From Candidatus Shapirobacteria bacterium (GTDB lineage Bacteria; Patescibacteriota; Microgenomatia; UBA12405): 64,000 nt of DNA. How positions within the stretch are numbered: position 1 is the stretch's first letter; each line of letters starts with the position of its first letter. The position numbers were made by a program, and so were the translations under genes. Shown here piece after piece: positions 3,573 through 64,000 of the stretch. The stretch covers positions 38,722 to 102,721 of the forward strand of contig JBAZML010000001.1 in NCBI GenBank assembly GCA_041649835.1, in the 5' to 3' direction. The notes beneath the pieces were generated by a model that saw only the letters and a list, made by a program, of their open reading frames with translations, was not told the origin of the DNA and did not search any database.

Positions 3573-4160
3573 TTAGAGATTAATTTGATTAGAAATCCCT
3601 TGCATTGAGGTTAGACAAATTTCGATGAATTTTTCGAGGGGAATATTTATTTTGTCAGCGTCCTGACAAAGAATTACTTCATCGCGACGAGTACCGGCGG
3701 CAAATTTTGGTTCCTTCAAAAATCTTTTTAGAACCGAAGAAACTTTTACTTCAGCTAACTTTTTACTGGGATAAATTAAGGCGACAGCGGTAATAAGTCC
3801 GGTTAGAGAATCAGCACAACGAATAGACCACTCGGCTTTGTTTTTCGGAACAATACCAGTTTGATCGGCATGAGCTTTTACTAGGTGGTCGACTGTGTTG
3901 GAAATTTCCAAATGATATTTGGCTAAGACTTCACGAGTTTTGTTTGGGTGTTTATCCTTGGTATCACCGGCATAATCGATATCATGGACTAAACCCGCCA
4001 AGGTCCATTCTTCCCGAGCTGGCTCCCCTGCTTCTAATTGATTTTGAGATTTTAGGTAGTCGTAAATTCCCCCTAAACAAGCTTCGAGAGCAAGAGAGTG
4101 AAACAGAATGTTGGTTTCTAAATTTGATTTGACGGCTTCGTAATAGGGTTGTCTATCCAT
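3573..4160 (-). CDS. HD-domain phosphohydrolase
   Basis: 195 aa with an HD signature (LVHDIDY...). Confidence 0.55.
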   Translation of the reverse strand: MDRQPYYEAVKSNLETNILFHSLALEACLGGIYDYLKSQNQLEAGEPAREEWTLAGLVHDIDYAGDTKDKHPNKTREVLAKYHLEISNTVDHLVKAHADQTGIVPKNKAEWSIRCADSLTGLITAVALIYPSKKLAEVKVSSVLKRFLKEPKFAAGTRRDEVILCQDADKINIPLEKFIEICLTSMQGISNQINL

Positions 4161-56271: not shown

Positions 56272-57429
56272 CTATAATTTTATTTGTTTTTCACATTTCT
56301 TTTTCAATGAAAATATTAGAGGTAAAAGAAACGAAAAAATGTTACCAAGATAATAATAAGGAAATTTTTGACAGGTGGATTTTGATAAGTAATAGTCAAA
56401 GATTAGGGATAATATAGAAATTGATAAAGTAATGAAGTGATAGGGACAAATTATTATGTTGACCATGAGCGCTAAAAGAAAAGCAAAAGGAAAAATATTG
56501 ACACAACTGACACCCTCAACACTACCAGTAGTATCTGGAACAGTATCCTGTACACCCAAGATTTCAGAGTTAAAACCGATAGCAGGTTGTTGATTTACTA
56601 AAACTTGACCATTTGGGATAGCTGACACAATATCGGAAAATATACCAGAGGCACAGCCGTTGCCAGTGCGAATCTTAAAATAATAAATAGTGTCAGCGGA
56701 AAGATTATTAATTGTATATGAGTTAATCCCCTTGCCACCAATATTTGGATTACCATATTTTCCGGCATCCGGATTATTGCTATAAGCAATTAGATAATAT
56801 GTAAAATTATCAGTAGGTTCATCCCAAAAAAGCGTAACTGTATTTTGACCACTAATAGTTCGTAAATTTTGAGGAATCTGAAAAGGTGTAGCATCACGAC
56901 ACCGAATATCGATGTCACTTGAGGTGTTTTCATTGGAAGCTATAGTGGGGACAGGAGTGACGTTTTCAGTGTCACATGTAAAATTAAAACTAATATCAAA
57001 ATAGTTGTTTTGTAATTGAAATTCATTGCCTGCCGATTGTTTTAGGGATATTGTCCAGCGATAGTCTTTATATTGATTTCCATCTATATTACCCAATTGA
57101 TGGGTTTTTTCATCAAATATGTCGCTAATTTGTCCCGAATACCAAACATCGCTTCCATTGACTACACTCAATGTTAAAACTGTTGATAAATTATTGGAAT
57201 TTAAAATTGGGTTGAATTTAAATAGAAGATTACAACTATCTGTACGATGATTTATTACTTTTAGAGTTTGCGAATTGATGAATCCGGGGACAATATTTAA
57301 TTCGTTAAAAAATGGTAATTTATGTGACTTGGTGCAGGAATCAGTAGAACAAGTAATGGTTATATCATTGCCAGCAAAAACAGGAGAAGAAAAAATGATT
57401 AAAATAATAAGAAAAATTATTATTTTCAC
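56272..57429 (-). CDS. Secreted/surface protein with a fibronectin-III-like domain and a C-terminal multi-TM anchor
   Basis: Sec signal peptide MKIIIFLIILIIFSSPVFAG. FN3-like segment …TVTLFWDEPTDNFTYYLIAYS…TIYYFKIRT…. The start overlaps the upstream gene stop by 4 nt. Confidence 0.6.
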   Translation of the reverse strand: MKIIIFLIILIIFSSPVFAGNDITITCSTDSCTKSHKLPFFNELNIVPGFINSQTLKVINHRTDSCNLLFKFNPILNSNNLSTVLTLSVVNGSDVWYSGQISDIFDEKTHQLGNIDGNQYKDYRWTISLKQSAGNEFQLQNNYFDISFNFTCDTENVTPVPTIASNENTSSDIDIRCRDATPFQIPQNLRTISGQNTVTLFWDEPTDNFTYYLIAYSNNPDAGKYGNPNIGGKGINSYTINNLSADTIYYFKIRTGNGCASGIFSDIVSAIPNGQVLVNQQPAIGFNSEILGVQDTVPDTTGSVEGVSCVNIFPFAFLLALMVNIIICPYHFITLSISILSLIFDYYLSKSTCQKFPYYYLGNIFSFLLPLIFSLKKKCEKQIKL

Positions 57430-59687
57430 AAATTAAAAATAAATGTTTTTGGCGGAAGGTCACTAAAAGTTACCGTAAAACTACTTCCTAAACCTGAGCT
57501 CGATACACATGTTCCACCACTACTACAGGTGCCTAAATAGAAATCACGAGTTGAGACCCCATCGGTATCAATTGCGTTTGGCAAAATTTGACCATAAATT
57601 TGTTGAGGACCTGAAATATCAGAATAATCAATAGTGTACGACATATCTGAAAGTGTCGTTGACAGACCTGAAATACTGAGAGTAATTTTGGAAACTGAGA
57701 GGCGAGATTCCAAATTAAAAAATGGAGGAGAATTTGTCATTACCCAAGGACCCAAGCCATCAACAATTCTTTGCCATACCGATGTACCCAAATTACTAAC
57801 CGTGGTGGAATCAACTAAATTACCGTCAACAAATAATTTTATTTCACTGAGAACTGAAATGGGGGTTGATAAAATAATATTAAAAGACTGCATGGGCGAA
57901 AGAGTACCCGATAATGAGATAGGTAAGTCGCTATTAATAACATAGGAATATTTACTTAAATCAACCGTTTCACTCTGACTGTTATTAAATAGAGTAATTA
58001 TATTTTGAGAAATTTTATTTAAAACTAATGGTGGTAATACAACGATTGATTGATGATGTATATTTTCAGTATTCTGTGCAGAATCTGTCGATGAGAAACT
58101 AACAATATTTTCCCCTGGAACAAGAATTATTGGTGATGAAGTAGAGGCTATATCTGATCCCAAATCAGTAGCAATATTATCAAAGATACTTGTCTCTCCA
58201 ACCCTGGTATCTAAAGAAAAAATATTAATATTGTCAAGATAAACCCACGAATTATAATCATCACCACTACCGGTATCAGTTAAAGAAAACAATAATTTGA
58301 AAGTTTGACCGGCAAAACTGGTTAAACTGCGGCTAAGAGTTATCCAACCGGAATCATAGTTATAATCATCAGTATTTAAGTTACCAAAATTTAAAATATT
58401 TTCTAAAATATTAGTACCAGAAAGGTCAGTAATATCAACATTAAAATGGTCATAATCTGCTATGTCATGACTAAAAAAATGATAAGAAAATTTTAACGTT
58501 GAAGATGCAGATGCGGGCAGGGAAACCGTTTGATAAAAAGAATCTGTACCATTAATAGTTTTGGCTTCAGAGCCCAAGATATAGACATTGTTGTCAAGGT
58601 CACCGTTATTAATAATGTGATGATCTCCAATAGAAGATGAAACTTGCCAACCCACCATGCCATTTTCAAAATTACCGTTAATTAAGTAATCTTGACCAGT
58701 GCAAATATGATTTGGGAGAGATTGATTGTCGAGATTGGTAGTTGGCGGAATAGTGTCAACTTTTATTTGATTGTAATAATAATCAAAGTCTTTTGTTTCG
58801 ACATTACCAGAAGAATCGGTGGCCACTGATTCGAAACTATATAATCCATCACCTTCTGGGGAGGTAAAATGAAAATTACCCATGGGGCCATAGATTGTTT
58901 CTGAAAATAACTGCCAAGAATTATAGTTGAAAGAATAATATAGTTGAATATAAGCAACAGATTCATTGTCATCAGCAGTGGACATAATATTGAAGTTGTG
59001 AATGTTTTTGGTTGAAATATCCATCAAATCTATTGATGATTCCGGTGGAGTTAACTCTCCGATAGAAAAAGTTATGCCGGAAATTAAACTAGTTGAAGTA
59101 TAAAATGCTGAAATACTTTTAGTAACCTGAACAACAAAAATACTGATAAATAACAGTAGTTGAATAATTATTTTAGGAAATTTCTTTTTTAGATTATTTT
59201 TTATCTTAAATATTTCTGAAATTATTAATAACCCTGCAGGCAAACAGATACCAAAAATAAAACCAAGTGGACGACGGAGAAGTGCAACGATATATCCAAT
59301 GTACGGTATGGAAAATTGATATCGTCCTATTACCCCAACGTCAACAACATCCCACTGATCGATTGTATTGTTATTATCTCCTTTGGTTGAAAACCGTATC
59401 GGATTTGTCGATTTTATTAAATTTATACGATGAAGAATGGTATCTTTTGAATTATTTGGCGAGGCAAAAGCAATAATGTCACCGGTTTTTAAGATATTTG
59501 GATTAATTGGTTTTACAAAAACAAGTGAACCTGATTTGATAAGTGGTTCCATTGAACCACTTACAACAACGAATGATTTGGGAATATTTTGAAAGAATGA
59601 TGGAGAAATAACAAAAAAGACAAATATTGACATGGTAAAAATAATTATCTTTTTTAAAATGTTTGAACTGTTTTTTATATTAAGCAC
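57426..59687 (-). CDS. SipW-type (archaeal/ER-type S26B) signal peptidase fused to a protein with a SipW-cognate signal and a CBM-like domain
   Basis: Residues 1-160: TM, SGSMEP (catalytic Ser box), ILHRINLI (His box), TKGDNN box, TM. Residues ~165-200: KKKFPKIIIQLLLFISIFVVQVTKSISAFYTSTSLISGITFSIGEL resembles TasA/CalY signals. Later, LINGNFENGMVGWQ has a CBM_4_9-like start. Confidence 0.75.
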   Translation of the reverse strand: MLNIKNSSNILKKIIIFTMSIFVFFVISPSFFQNIPKSFVVVSGSMEPLIKSGSLVFVKPINPNILKTGDIIAFASPNNSKDTILHRINLIKSTNPIRFSTKGDNNNTIDQWDVVDVGVIGRYQFSIPYIGYIVALLRRPLGFIFGICLPAGLLIISEIFKIKNNLKKKFPKIIIQLLLFISIFVVQVTKSISAFYTSTSLISGITFSIGELTPPESSIDLMDISTKNIHNFNIMSTADDNESVAYIQLYYSFNYNSWQLFSETIYGPMGNFHFTSPEGDGLYSFESVATDSSGNVETKDFDYYYNQIKVDTIPPTTNLDNQSLPNHICTGQDYLINGNFENGMVGWQVSSSIGDHHIINNGDLDNNVYILGSEAKTINGTDSFYQTVSLPASASSTLKFSYHFFSHDIADYDHFNVDITDLSGTNILENILNFGNLNTDDYNYDSGWITLSRSLTSFAGQTFKLLFSLTDTGSGDDYNSWVYLDNINIFSLDTRVGETSIFDNIATDLGSDIASTSSPIILVPGENIVSFSSTDSAQNTENIHHQSIVVLPPLVLNKISQNIITLFNNSQSETVDLSKYSYVINSDLPISLSGTLSPMQSFNIILSTPISVLSEIKLFVDGNLVDSTTVSNLGTSVWQRIVDGLGPWVMTNSPPFFNLESRLSVSKITLSISGLSTTLSDMSYTIDYSDISGPQQIYGQILPNAIDTDGVSTRDFYLGTCSSGGTCVSSSGLGSSFTVTFSDLPPKTFIFNL

Positions 59688-59733
59688 CTAATAGATCACA
59701 GAATATTTTCCGTGATCTATAGACGTGTAATAT

Positions 59734-60288
59734 TTACTGTTGGGTGCCAAGAAATTGAAAGGAAAGACCTGACAGAGTTTGACCAGTGTCATTGTTGTCA
59801 ATCCCATTTAAGGAAACTTTCATTTGATATTTTTGAGAATTACCATAACTTATGGAGTCAATTTCAAAACCGGTTGTTTGCCATTGAGATATAGGACCTG
59901 ATGCCAAATCAATCCACGTAGTACCGTTATATTTTTGGAAGCTGACAATAATTTTATTACCGATTACACTCCAGGAGGAAGAATTTGATGCGGGAGAATT
60001 ATCTATTAATTTTGTAAAAATATTTAAACCAATATTTGAAAGACTCGTGTTTTTTAAATAAAACTCTTGGGAACCCAAGAAACCCGGAGCCATATTAGTG
60101 TAATTAGAAACCGGTTCGAAAGTAGTATCCCAGGTATTACCATCAATACTAATTTTGAGATCGGCACTACCAGTACTAAAAGTTAAACCACTGACTGTGG
60201 CAGTAGAACTGAATAGGGCATAGGCGGATGAAGAGACCAGTCCGAGAATAAAAACTATGAGTAAAATACTTGAGACTATTTTTTTCAT
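59734..60288 (-). CDS. TasA/camelysin-like protein with a SipW-cognate-class signal peptide
   Basis: MKKIVSSILLIVFILGLVSSSAYALFSSTATVSGLTFSTGSADL. Compare B. cereus CalY GGGTFAYFSDKEVSNNTFAAGTLDL. No LPXTG. 184 aa. Confidence 0.6.
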   Translation of the reverse strand: MKKIVSSILLIVFILGLVSSSAYALFSSTATVSGLTFSTGSADLKISIDGNTWDTTFEPVSNYTNMAPGFLGSQEFYLKNTSLSNIGLNIFTKLIDNSPASNSSSWSVIGNKIIVSFQKYNGTTWIDLASGPISQWQTTGFEIDSISYGNSQKYQMKVSLNGIDNNDTGQTLSGLSFQFLGTQQ

Positions 60289-60371: not shown

Positions 60372-60977
60372 TCAGATTGATTTTGCTATGATTATCAAAC
60401 GGCTGAGCGTAGTACCCGGAGGCCAACAAGTCATCAAAGTTAGTGTATTAGTGTTTTGTTTATTAGATAAGTAGTTGATATCGGTGTTTTTGACAATCTT
60501 TTTTTCAGCGACTTTATATTTGTACTCACTTTTTTCATAGTTAATTGTAATTTCGTCATCCAAATCAAGCTTGTCTGTCAAATAAAAAATGGCATTAAAT
60601 TGATTGGCCTGATACCAGGAATTGGCTGAGTGAGCAAAGATAAAGATATTACCCGGGAAACCGGGGAGTCCAGAACCTTTGGCATGAGCCACCCCTTTTG
60701 TTAATGCTTTCTGATATTCAGAGGAGTTATAGGGATCAACATTTTTAACCACATTGGCATTGACACCAATTTTAGGAATTTGAATTGAAAAATCTGTGTT
60801 TATCGGTACTATTTGGTCTTTTGATGGTAGTATCTTCTGAGCTTGATAACCAAGTTCCGCCTGTGCTACAGGAAAAAAAGTTTTGACCAAAATAAATGCT
60901 GAAGCGATTACTAGTATGTATCCCAGTGGGCCAAGTATCTTATTTACGACGGGTACTTTTCTTTTTCTCCGAGACAT
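60372..60977 (-). CDS. Sortase-family transpeptidase (paralog 2)
   Basis: N-terminal TM, His in IFIFAHS, Cys in TLTLMTCWPP, Arg in LSRLIII. The start overlaps the 3' end of the adhesin gene by 38 nt. Confidence 0.8.
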   Translation of the reverse strand: MSRRKRKVPVVNKILGPLGYILVIASAFILVKTFFPVAQAELGYQAQKILPSKDQIVPINTDFSIQIPKIGVNANVVKNVDPYNSSEYQKALTKGVAHAKGSGLPGFPGNIFIFAHSANSWYQANQFNAIFYLTDKLDLDDEITINYEKSEYKYKVAEKKIVKNTDINYLSNKQNTNTLTLMTCWPPGTTLSRLIIIAKSI

Positions 60978-63900
60978 ATCTAATTATAAGGACAATTATC
61001 ACTAATGCGAGAATTAGATAAAGCCAGTATTTTTGAATAAAGTTTTTAGCTGCTCCTTGAACACCCAGAACACTTCCTTCGCCGGTAGTCTCTGCTGCAC
61101 CCAAGGTACCTGTGTCATTTGTATTTTCTTGACCAGGAGCTAATGCAACATTAGTAACAGGAATAGCACCAGTGTCTGTATTGATTGTAGTTCCTATAGT
61201 GGTTGTTGTCGTGATTGAGGTGACGACGCTGTCACCAACCGGACTGGAACCATTACCGGCATTATCAAAGGCGCGGATGACATAGTAATAATTTTTGTTA
61301 CAGTCAGGAACCGAGTTGGTAACATCGCGTTCTTCATTGGAACCAACAGAGACTGTGGAGACAACTGAGCCGGCATCTAAAATGAAGTTGGTTATATCAG
61401 CCCGATAGACTTCGACCTTGACTGTTTTTCCGCCATCATCAGCAGTTTTAAAGTGAATTTTGTAGTCACAGTTATTCGGGTGATCTTTACGATAATCATT
61501 TGGTGTACCGGGACCGGAGACTTTATACTCCATAGAAACGGTATTACTATCAACTCCATTGGCCATAACTTTAAATTCATAGCTTCCCTCGGTGCTTAAT
61601 ACTGAGGATAAAGAGCAGTGGTTGGCATTGTAACCGGCGTTTGGAGAAGAAATATCAGCACCAAATTGAGTAAAAGTAGCATCGGTAGAATATTTTTTAA
61701 AACATTTTACGATGACAAAGTTTTGGTCAATGTCCAGAGCGACAAAGTTTAGGTTAACGTCATTGGTATTGATTGGTGACTTTGGTATCTCAAGACGAAC
61801 TGATAAATTACCGACAGCAGTCGCATTATTTGGGAATAAGAAGAAGGCGGCAAATAATAGAATAGACAAAACCTTTTTAGATTTTTTAATTAGAGTAAAG
61901 CCTAGTAATGACATAAGGGTACTAATAATTAACCATGAGGTTGAAGAACCGGTTGAAGGAAGCTCCGTAGAAGCACCCAGGACTTCACCAGTTCTGATTT
62001 CCTGTCGTTCAACTCCGGCTCCAATGGAATTTTGAGTTGATTTAACAACCGGAACAATAGTACCAACAAAAGTTGTATTGACATATTGGGAATCTTCACC
62101 TTGGGCATAAACTGTACTAGATTGATATTTAGCATTGCCCATGGCTACGGCTAAATCAGTGTATTCGCCAGGTTGTTGATCTGTACTGATATCGGCAATA
62201 TAACTTAGTTCGACAACATCACCGGCTTTCAAATCACCTAAATTCCAAACTCCAGGAGAATGATATTGAGGTTCGATAATACTACCAGTAACATCGGTAC
62301 CACCAATAGATACGTGGTAAGAACCTAAACGATATTTAAATCCATTTGATAAGAGATCGGTAACCTTGAATCCGGTTACATCATTACCTAAAATTTTGAC
62401 TTTTATTTTGTATCCAACTGAGGAACCGGGAGACAGGTCGCCGACTGCATCGTTGGTTTTTGAGATGGTAGCAGTGGGAGTAACAAGACGGTTTCCAATG
62501 AAACATTGTATATTATCGCCAGCCTTGACGGTAACGAGTTTATGATTATATGAATCACTATCGGCCTGGGCACTGACAGATTTAACGAATTTAAAAGCAG
62601 CTTCACAAGCATCACCAGTTCCGTCACCATTTGAGTCCGTTTGACTTGCATTAGCAACGGAAGGACAATTATCTTCGCTGTCACATATTTCATCCCTGTC
62701 AATATCAGAACAATTACCTTGGGTTGGAGTAGCAGTAGGTTGTTGACAGTGACCATTTCCTGATGGGTTGTTACCGGTAACACAGACCAATCCACTACAA
62801 CAACTTTTTTCGGAATTGTTTATCTGACACTCAGCGTTTTCGTGTTTACACTGAGGAGCTTGTGTTGGACCAGTTGTTGGTGTCTGAGTTACTGTTGGAG
62901 TAGGTCTGGAATCACTAGAACACGTGATTCCAGTTTGAGTCCAACCATCTTGCATGACCTCACTTAAGGTATAAGTGCTTGGAGTAAGTTGATCAAAAAT
63001 AGCCCCTTTATTACCGGTGATTTTTGTATCGCCGGATAAATTGACAATCCAGCCAGGTAAAACTTTGTCGATATCTTCATTATATTTACCATCGTTATCA
63101 ATATCGTTAAATTTAGTGACATTTATTTGACCTAATTGTTGATTACCAAAATTATATTCATGACCAGAAACATAATTTGTACTATTTGGAAATTGACCAG
63201 AATTACCGTCAGGTAGACTGATTAAATGACAATTATCGTCTTTATCAGTAGTTGGATATATTGGTCTCCAACCATCTTGTAAAACTTCACAAACTTTATA
63301 TTGACCTGGAAGAAGATTTTCAAACCAGTACCAACCGAAGTGTGACGTACCGATGTCAGTATTCATCGTTTTTATTGGAGTAGGTTCATAGCCACCAGCA
63401 TTGTTTGATTTATATAGATTTATCGTCCAACCAGGTAATAATTCTTCGTTGAAGCTGGAAACTGGACCACCACTACCATCAGCATCACTCCACTTGTAAC
63501 CATGAATGGAACCTTCGGGTTGGTTTCCGAAATACATTTGATTGTTGGATTCATTATCAACATGCATTGTATAGCTTTGACAATTACCGGTAGTTAAAGT
63601 CCAACCATCTTGTTTGACTTCTTTTATCCAATAGGTTTGGCCTAAATATAGGTTCTCAAAACTAGCAGTACCTGGTTTGCCTAAATCACCGTTTGTTATT
63701 GCAGTCATGCTTGGAGATCCAGTACAAGTGTTATTTTCATAGAGTTCAAATGTCCAACCGTCTAAAAATCTTTCACTCTCTTCTATTGTTTGATTACCGT
63801 TCAAATCTTCGAATTTACTGACATAGAGGGGAGAGGCAATTTTAGTATTAGTAAAGACACAAGTAATCGTCTCACCCGAATCAAGCTCTAAATTACCGTA

Positions 63901-64000
63901 AGTTTCAGTATCTCCAATTGAACTAGTGCAAGTTTTGTCAGTCAATACCCATCCCGGAGGTACTATTTCGTTAAAGCTGTAAGTTCCAGCAATTAACCAA
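60940..64000 (-). CDS. Large cell-surface adhesin-like protein. The N-terminus lies beyond the window. It has Cna-B/SdrD-B-like repeats, a TSP3 repeat, an internal LPSTG sorting signal, then a second signal-like segment, an FN3-like module and a C-terminal TM anchor.
   Basis: The reading frame stays open from the window edge (64000) down to the stop at 60940. The ORF-track start at 63945 is a TTG. Repeated …DxDGxGxxxxxExxLxGWTFxLY… units. LPSTG-SSTSWLIISTLMSLLGFTLI-KKSKK is encoded at about 61860..61962. Confidence 0.8.
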   Translation of the reverse strand, partial: WLIAGTYSFNEIVPPGWVLTDKTCTSSIGDTETYGNLELDSGETITCVFTNTKIASPLYVSKFEDLNGNQTIEESERFLDGWTFELYENNTCTGSPSMTAITNGDLGKPGTASFENLYLGQTYWIKEVKQDGWTLTTGNCQSYTMHVDNESNNQMYFGNQPEGSIHGYKWSDADGSGGPVSSFNEELLPGWTINLYKSNNAGGYEPTPIKTMNTDIGTSHFGWYWFENLLPGQYKVCEVLQDGWRPIYPTTDKDDNCHLISLPDGNSGQFPNSTNYVSGHEYNFGNQQLGQINVTKFNDIDNDGKYNEDIDKVLPGWIVNLSGDTKITGNKGAIFDQLTPSTYTLSEVMQDGWTQTGITCSSDSRPTPTVTQTPTTGPTQAPQCKHENAECQINNSEKSCCSGLVCVTGNNPSGNGHCQQPTATPTQGNCSDIDRDEICDSEDNCPSVANASQTDSNGDGTGDACEAAFKFVKSVSAQADSDSYNHKLVTVKAGDNIQCFIGNRLVTPTATISKTNDAVGDLSPGSSVGYKIKVKILGNDVTGFKVTDLLSNGFKYRLGSYHVSIGGTDVTGSIIEPQYHSPGVWNLGDLKAGDVVELSYIADISTDQQPGEYTDLAVAMGNAKYQSSTVYAQGEDSQYVNTTFVGTIVPVVKSTQNSIGAGVERQEIRTGEVLGASTELPSTGSSTSWLIISTLMSLLGFTLIKKSKKVLSILLFAAFFLFPNNATAVGNLSVRLEIPKSPINTNDVNLNFVALDIDQNFVIVKCFKKYSTDATFTQFGADISSPNAGYNANHCSLSSVLSTEGSYEFKVMANGVDSNTVSMEYKVSGPGTPNDYRKDHPNNCDYKIHFKTADDGGKTVKVEVYRADITNFILDAGSVVSTVSVGSNEERDVTNSVPDCNKNYYYVIRAFDNAGNGSSPVGDSVVTSITTTTTIGTTINTDTGAIPVTNVALAPGQENTNDTGTLGAAETTGEGSVLGVQGAAKNFIQKYWLYLILALVIIVLIIRYVSEKKKSTRRK

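Follow-up and report, generated by a model that had tools for sequence, protein, structure and literature searches.

An internal sortase sorting signal back to back with a predicted second signal peptide in an adhesin fusion shared by about 40 Microgenomates species

The DNA considered here, hereafter the window, is a stretch of 64,000 nucleotides (nt) from an uncultured, ultra-small bacterium, Candidatus Shapirobacteria (assembly GCA_041649835.1, contig JBAZML010000001.1, positions 38,722 to 102,721). Toward its end lies a single minus-strand open reading frame (ORF) that extends from a TAA at 60940-60942 to past 64000, joining in one frame a large adhesin, a sortase sorting signal, a second signal-peptide-like segment and a smaller C-terminal part that we call module 2; a sortase gene follows (Table 1). 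Because the frame remains open up to the window edge, the adhesin N-terminus lies outside the window, and residues are numbered over the 1019 translated amino acids (aa) counted from nt 63999. No stop interrupts the frame through GEVLGASTE, LPSTG, 20 hydrophobic residues, KKSKK, VLSILLFAAFFLFPNNATA and 291 further residues. This bears out the core of a first-pass annotation, which had described a sorting signal ELPSTG...KKSKK that is internal to the ORF and translated onward (one frame, aa 680-1019), then a hydrophobic core with an AxA-like site (VLSILLFAAFFLFPNNATA ending in ATA, then VGN), and finally a Thr-rich stalk, a C-terminal transmembrane (TM) segment and a basic tail, which we place at aa 933-986 and 992-1019. 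The downstream part is shorter than the roughly 330 aa first estimated, counting 310 residues after KKSKK or 291 after ATA.

Table 1. Coordinates of the fused ORF, its parts and the adjoining sortase gene within the window
Feature	Residues (aa)	Position (nt)	Strand	Basis
Adhesin part of the fused ORF (visible portion)	1-679	61963..64000	-	Pfam SpaA 4e-11, SpaA_4 8.8e-08, SdrD_B 1.9e-05
Pre-anchor motif GEVLGASTE, end of the adhesin C-terminal domain	671-679	61963-61989	-	
LPSTG sortase recognition motif, internal to the ORF	680-684	61948..61962	-	
TM1 SSTSWLIISTLMSLLGFTLI, hydrophobic stop-transfer segment of the sorting signal	685-704	61888..61947	-	hydropathy
KKSKK, predicted cytoplasmic loop of the hairpin	705-709	61873..61887	-	
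TM2 / internal signal peptide VLSILLFAAFFLFPNNATA	710-728	61816..61872	-	homology to stand-alone orthologues
Predicted signal peptidase I site ATA↓V		between 61816 and 61815	-	
VGNLSV... to the stop	729-1019	60943-61815	-	
First FN3-like beta-sandwich	732-825	61525..61806	-	AlphaFold2 model
Second FN3-like beta-sandwich	834-911	61267..61500	-	AlphaFold2 model
Thr-rich stalk, predicted disordered, G-x-VLG at its end	933-986	61042..61203	-	pLDDT <50, model residues 229-282
C-terminal membrane anchor WLYLILALVIIVLIIRY (aa 992-1008) with basic tail VSEKKKSTRRK	992-1019	60943..61026	-	helix, model residues 288-312
Sortase gene (201 aa), TLMTC catalytic motif at 60426-60440		60372..60977	-	Pfam Sortase 4.4e-22

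The junction itself combines two export signals that share a boundary. An LPXTG-type pentapeptide, a 20-aa hydrophobic segment and a positive cluster are all in place, as in a regular sorting signal, but the extreme C-terminal location is not, as 310 residues come after KKSKK. The following residues, aa 705-728, fit a Sec-type signal peptide divisible into KKSKK, VLSILLFAAFFLF and PNN-A-T-A, with small residues at -3 and -1 (signal-peptide calls are based here on the -3/-1 rule and homology alone). KKSKK thus serves both signals, as basic tail of the first and n-region of the second, and stand-alone module 2 orthologues carry their Met-Lys/Arg n-regions at the aligned position. This in-frame arrangement far exceeds chance. 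The loop also contains A6/A5 runs on which ribosomal or transcriptional slippage is conceivable, and off-frame stops are expected by chance in a sequence this AT-rich.

In Microgenomates (Patescibacteria), module 2 is part of a protein family of about 320 aa that lacks annotation; its members combine a signal peptide with two FN3-like domains, a stalk rich in Thr and a TM helix at the C-terminus. The protein collection holds 94 homologues. With few exceptions these stand alone as proteins of 300-345 aa from Microgenomates, Daviesbacteria, Gottesmanbacteria and Collierbacteria among them, and in the alignment their Met-Lys/Arg n-region, h-region and AxA match the window's KKSKK-VLSILLFAAFFLFPNNATA column for column. 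It follows that the second hydrophobic segment of the window is orthologous to real N-terminal signal peptides. Scans of module 2 against Pfam and NCBIfam returned no family, and no metalloprotease or peptidase match. An AlphaFold2 model built on 86 sequences, with a mean predicted local distance difference test score (pLDDT) of 79.9, comprises a signal-peptide helix, two beta-sandwiches, a disordered Thr-rich stretch and a C-terminal TM helix. The FN3-like fold proposed at first pass is supported, the sandwiches being seven-stranded in the prediction as FN3-like domains should be, but the model gives two such domains rather than one. The first holds a near-invariant PKSP (K740, 61780-61782) and two invariant Cys; ahead of the second runs a conserved linker, GPGTPxDYxK, whose Lys838 (61486-61488) is 99% conserved. 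All aligned homologues share a Thr-rich region of variable length and the C-terminal anchor, and module 2 ends without an LPXTG. We also considered module 2 as a pilin and found no support for this, as its predicted fold is FN3-like and not Cna-type (CnaA/CnaB), it has no LPXTG of its own, and a pilin motif was not demonstrated.

Scanning the GTDB species representatives provided 80 loci, each of which was walked upstream in frame from the module 2 match. The in-frame fusion is found in 40 of these 80, as well as in three separate metagenome populations (L001-L004, L005 and L006), making 44 fused junctions in all, namely the window plus 43 other non-redundant loci. These loci show 36-60% identity, and their upstream ORFs remain open for up to more than 2000 aa. 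The junctions are built alike: in 44/44, [LM]PxTG occupies the same position (it is also present in the adhesin tails of unfused loci), the hydrophobic segment that follows measures 20-26 aa, the loop carries a net charge of +2 to +6, and small-x-Ala is kept. Complete fused orthologues (L021, L025, L031, L058, L077, L088 and others) begin with signal-peptide-like sequences, and the gene order LPXTG adhesin, module 2, sortase holds in 79/79 evaluable loci; in each of these, the sortase follows module 2 directly and shares its strand. The nearest relatives of the window, the Shapirobacteria-type loci L013-L016 (54-60% identity), are all fused and have an almost identical hairpin.

Considering that one indel, or the loss of one stop, interconverts the fused and unfused states, an artefact or decay limited to one genome could in principle mimic a fusion, whether through a collapsed stop, an indel error in assembly or a recent pseudogenizing event. 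Yet every member of the window's clade (L013-L016 and further loci) shares both the fusion and the hairpin geometry, 40 species have the fused state, and the hairpin has diverged both synonymously and non-synonymously while its features persist; between L041 and L052 alone, it differs by 18 synonymous and 31 non-synonymous codons. Because the fusion is conserved in 40 GTDB species plus the three metagenome populations, we reject an assembly error or collapsed stop, and we regard artefact or decay as a whole as hardly credible. On this comparative evidence, the fusion and its conservation across about 40 species are real biology, not assembly error. The first-pass annotation had also raised the prospect that orthologues would simply carry two adjacent genes parted by a stop. 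About half of the species indeed do, but the window's own clade is uniformly fused, and the window is thus not a collapsed stop. As an aside, many metagenome-assembled genome records with this cassette (L015, L017-L019, L023-L026 and other GTDB loci) are titled “uncultured Gammaproteobacteria/Pseudomonadales bacterium”; on cassettes of Microgenomates type, these look like placeholder or wrong labels.

The unfused loci reveal how close the two genes stand. In 32 of them, the adhesin stop and the module 2 ATG share an overlap of exactly 8 nt; automatic scoring gave 30 of these, and inspection by eye added L080 and L085, which show the same ATGCGTAA overlap. Here the basic tail of the adhesin, LRR(K/R)xx and a stop, is encoded TTA AGG AGG ..., so that the adhesin's Arg-Arg codons (AGGAGG) are at the same time the Shine-Dalgarno (SD) sequence of module 2. 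Four Collierbacteria-type loci (L053, L072, L076 and L081) instead read ...KK-TAA-ATG-KLK... in frame and are one substitution or one stop read-through away from fusion, and the remaining unfused states are a 4-nt overlap and a 2-nt gap, at one locus each; the gap between adhesin and module 2 never exceeds 2 nt in any determinable locus. A neighbor-joining tree of 85 module 2 sequences groups fused and unfused loci into large clades, at least 6 changes of state being required, and the fusion has thus persisted over deep divergence. A Met at the position where the unfused protein starts is still present in 29 of the 44 fused junctions, which suggests that at least some fusions derived from two-cistron ancestors.

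The reading that we favor, with a probability of roughly 0.68, is that the window encodes a single precursor containing a TM hairpin, a conserved fusion of neighboring cistrons in which sortase would cut LPST↓G and signal peptidase would cut ATA↓V. One fused chain is made, as the ORF lacks a stop codon. An N-terminal signal peptide, outside the window but present in orthologues, would start export of the adhesin; the hydrophobic segment after LPSTG would then stop transfer, KKSKK would remain cytoplasmic, and VLSILLFAAFFLFPNNATA would restart translocation as an internal signal peptide, a topology indicated by the positive-inside rule together with the orthology of TM2 to cleavable-type signal peptides. 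Module 2, with its two FN3-like domains and Thr-rich stalk, would be exported and held in the membrane by its C-terminal helix. The neighboring sortase would cleave LPST↓G and move the adhesin to an acceptor, while signal peptidase, cleaving ATA↓V, would free a membrane-anchored module 2 and leave behind a TM hairpin of about 44 residues. The topology, the two cleavages and their order are all inferred from sequence. The first-pass annotation had offered a polyprotein split by sortase as one of its two readings; its architecture stands, given a fusion conserved across deep clades with a full sorting signal and a signal-peptide-like segment, whereas the processing is predicted.

Internal signal sequences behind a TM segment can serve as uncleaved anchors, and the junction anatomy, with an h-region of 15-22 aa and a TM ahead of it, fits an uncleaved second helix. 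As ATA↓V is a predicted site, sortase could cut LPST↓G and module 2 could stay behind as a three-TM protein, consisting of the hairpin plus the C-terminal helix. We consider this outcome unlikely: small-x-Ala is kept in 44/44 although the sequence of the segment turns over fast, and the segment is orthologous to the N-terminal cleavable-type signal peptides of the unfused proteins. The retention of small-x-Ala while the rest of the hairpin diverges argues for continued selection on cleavage at this site.

Alternatively, the ORF could contain nested in-frame genes, with module 2 produced mainly by initiation at Met696, at a TTG (61867-61869) or on an internal leaderless transcript, and the fused chain as a by-product. 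The first-pass annotation had noted that the ATG at 61912-61914 (Met696) would give a textbook signal peptide for an independently translated second product. The codon is there and in frame; however, it falls inside TM1, the first hydrophobic helix, is kept in the closest relatives only and is not the position at which the stand-alone orthologues start, which is after the basic cluster. The window loop has no ATG; within the window, neither Met696 nor the TTG is preceded by an SD, which answers the suggestion of a ribosome-binding site upstream of the ATG in the negative, or by a -10-like TAnAAT box, and the minus strand has no promoter-like or terminator-like site at or upstream of the junction. 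Among the 44 fused junctions, none has an SD of at least 5 nt before any in-frame start, and 15 lack a loop ATG altogether, so that a separate module 2 could arise there only via a non-ATG start.

The missing SD is in itself weak evidence, because the window genome barely uses SD initiation (1/53 genes); we down-weighted it as proof against internal initiation and examined the -10-like boxes instead. Many ATGs in the window are preceded by a TAnAAT box 5-12 nt upstream (e.g., the starts at 4160, 5666, 9177, 15457, 24004, 31921 and 38926), a pattern suggesting that leaderless or near-leaderless mRNAs are common in this organism. The apparently general use of such starts speaks for nested genes, as does the ATG retained at the unfused start position in 29/44 fused junctions. 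An independent start at Met696 in the window was nevertheless rejected, with no SD, TAnAAT box or promoter-like site to support it and with orthologues that start elsewhere; without a stop codon, moreover, the fused chain would be made regardless. For the window, nested genes have the backing of neither initiation signals at Met696 or the TTG nor orthologue starts, and we judge them quite improbable, more so than an uncleaved helix.

Some observations nonetheless weigh against the doubly cut precursor, and the first two favor nested expression. TAAAAT stands 11-14 nt upstream of an in-frame loop ATG at 8 of 31 junction ATGs, compared with 9% in a background of Lys-rich coding sequence. The eight cases come from two clades and thus represent about two events, and the window is not among them; in these two clades, an additional internal transcript may be made. 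In L001-L004 (a 1-nt insertion) and in L005 (a TGA), the adhesin is interrupted and module 2 intact, which hints that module 2 may sometimes be expressed without a full adhesin. A gap-tolerant pattern search of metagenome contigs for the window's own junction gave 0 matches, and no second assembly of the strain was found. In favor of the precursor, by contrast, an SD was found in 12/249 neighboring genes at fused loci versus 86/484 at unfused loci, a contrast (Fisher p=3e-7) that is not phylogenetically corrected and rests on crudely chosen ORF starts. Regarding the lesions, the insertion (CATTC[C]ACCCGG) lies at nt ~3935 of L001, and the TGA of L005 replaces a conserved Trp at nt ~990; they fall within three codons of each other in a conserved EYHSPGVW, about 130 aa before LPXTG and equivalent to ~62245-62270 in the window. 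This motif is intact in 22/22 other loci where the scan found it, the window included, and we do not treat it as a lesion hotspot but as coincidence or population variants.

With the SD contrast so qualified, it is plausible but unproven that fusion secures coupled synthesis where SD-based translational coupling is lacking. A weaker inference is that fusion replaces SD-mediated coupling in the lineages that barely use SD, where it would guarantee 1:1 co-synthesis and co-localization of adhesin, module 2 and sortase.

A further idea, tentative and rather unlikely, is that the hairpin is an excisable “membrane intron”: signal peptidase would cut ATA↓V, and the dedicated sortase, cutting LPST↓G next, would join the adhesin Thr to module 2 and not to peptidoglycan, with either Lys838 or the new N-terminus of module 2 as acceptor. 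Module 2 is a possible sortase acceptor because of its invariable linkage to a class-C-like sortase and its invariant linker Lys, and the candidate product may be a covalent, membrane-anchored adhesin-on-a-stalk. Such joining, if true, would account for the constant place of module 2 between adhesin and sortase, for the spacing of at most 2 nt between the cistrons and for their ability to fuse, and Patescibacteria would then have a novel way of anchoring surface proteins.

By analogy, the closest precedent is the internal LPXTG anchor of the streptococcal IgA1 protease and ZmpA, ZmpB, ZmpC and ZmpD (Bender & Weiser, 2006, as summarized in PMC3518915). As that summary presents the Zmp proteins, LPXTG is followed by two hydrophobic segments, the second of which was proposed as a second signal peptide with a signal-peptidase site. 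The window likewise has a non-C-terminal LPXTG, then TM1, KKSKK, an h-region and a second signal-peptidase-type site, ATA↓V, and one chain would likewise give rise to two pieces, the N-terminal one anchored by sortase and the C-terminal one separate from it. To the extent that the same summary describes them, the Zmp proteins differ in carrying LPXTG near the N-terminus, whereas at least 679 aa of adhesin precede it in the window and up to ~2000 aa in orthologues, and in having a zinc metalloprotease (HEXXH) downstream instead of a small FN3 protein that ends in a TM of its own. Unlike Zmp, too, the present architecture alternates with a two-cistron state in sister lineages and originates from fusion of neighboring genes; no sequence homology to Zmp proteins was detected. 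Both readings offered at first pass had been called unusual. The architecture itself was not found described, and our survey of the literature on internal LPXTG motifs, sortase polyproteins and candidate phyla radiation (CPR) sortase systems turned up no Patescibacteria cassette or sortase polyprotein of this kind, but an internal LPXTG with a second signal-peptidase site does have its precedent in Zmp, at least as outlined in PMC3518915.

Other systems resemble parts of the arrangement. The canonical Gram-positive sorting signal shares the motif, the 20-26 aa hydrophobic length, the basic cluster and the adjacent sortase gene, whereas here the signal is internal, its basic tail doubles as a signal-peptide n-region, and 310 residues follow. 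Sortase pilus and adhesin clusters similarly contain a large SpaA-domain LPXTG adhesin, a dedicated sortase (here with class C as its best, sub-threshold match) and a small secreted protein between them, but module 2 is FN3-like rather than CnaA/CnaB, lacks LPXTG and is TM-anchored. Flavivirus-type polyproteins contain internal signal sequences that are cut by signal peptidase on the trans side. The predicted hairpin, a stop-transfer segment plus an internal signal sequence between two exported products, is analogous, although those polyproteins are viral and belong to the eukaryotic endoplasmic reticulum, while the window is bacterial and chromosomal and its first cut would be a sortase transpeptidation. 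The sister lineages with the 8-nt overlap (ATGnnTAA type) and the SD inside the upstream coding sequence are akin to translationally coupled cistrons. As with Rosetta-stone fusions, fusion in other lineages implies a functional partnership; unlike fusions through a simple linker, this one needs a membrane hairpin, because it joins two separately exported proteins.

What these junctions show is that a complete sorting signal placed mid-protein, back to back with a second signal peptide, works or is at least kept over long evolution, and does so throughout an entire radiation of uncultured bacteria. As a natural Rosetta stone, the fusion links a ~320-aa FN3 membrane family that had no annotation with giant adhesins and a dedicated sortase, and it offers a handle on how episymbiotic Patescibacteria build their attachment surfaces. 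The three junction states (8-nt overlap with the SD in Arg codons, in-frame stop-ATG, and fusion) amount to a natural experiment on how co-expression of exported partners is secured with or without SD initiation.

The upstream part of the ORF consists of SpaA/SdrD_B prealbumin-like domains (Pfam), of the type found in Gram-positive-type adhesins. A Cys-rich stretch with thrombospondin-type-3-like Asp-rich repeats (DIDRDEICDSEDNCPSVANASQTDSNGDGTGDACE; ~62510-62840, aa ~388-496) separates the SpaA-like domains from the last adhesin domain, and the orthologue in L001 has TSP_3 and DUF4215 matches. The adhesin N-termini of L021, L025, L031, L058, L077, L088 and L001 share an unusual signal-peptide region, ...ARK..S.LANLSLL.NSF.PF..., which hints at a specialized export signal. 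An (E/Q/S)(V/I)LG motif recurs ahead of the membrane-proximal region in three window proteins, as GEVLGASTELPSTG in the adhesin (61963-61989), GSVLGVQ in module 2 (61048-61065, without LPXTG) and SEILGVQ in an FN3 neighbor (within 56272-57429); among the adhesins of related loci, G-x-VLGAST ahead of LPxTG is nearly invariant.

The sortase gene and the fused ORF overlap by 38 nt. The sortase passes the generic sortase_fam model (50.1 against a cut-off of 39.35), and its best NCBIfam match, class_C_sortase, scores 62.6 bits, below the cut-off of 160. Its ATG (60977) lies inside the tail of the fused ORF with a TATAAT 5 nt upstream (cttataattagatATG), and the sortase may thus have its own leaderless-type start within the region encoding the module 2 tail. 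Directly downstream follow three further surface-related minus-strand genes (56272-60288), which together make up a second module next to the sortase cassette, resembling one for fibers or a biofilm matrix. They encode a TasA/camelysin-like protein whose signal peptide is of SipW type (59734-60288), a signal peptidase I of SipW/archaeal type that is fused to a C-terminal extension of ~590 aa (57426-59687), and the FN3 protein mentioned above, which carries C-terminal hydrophobic segments (56272-57429).

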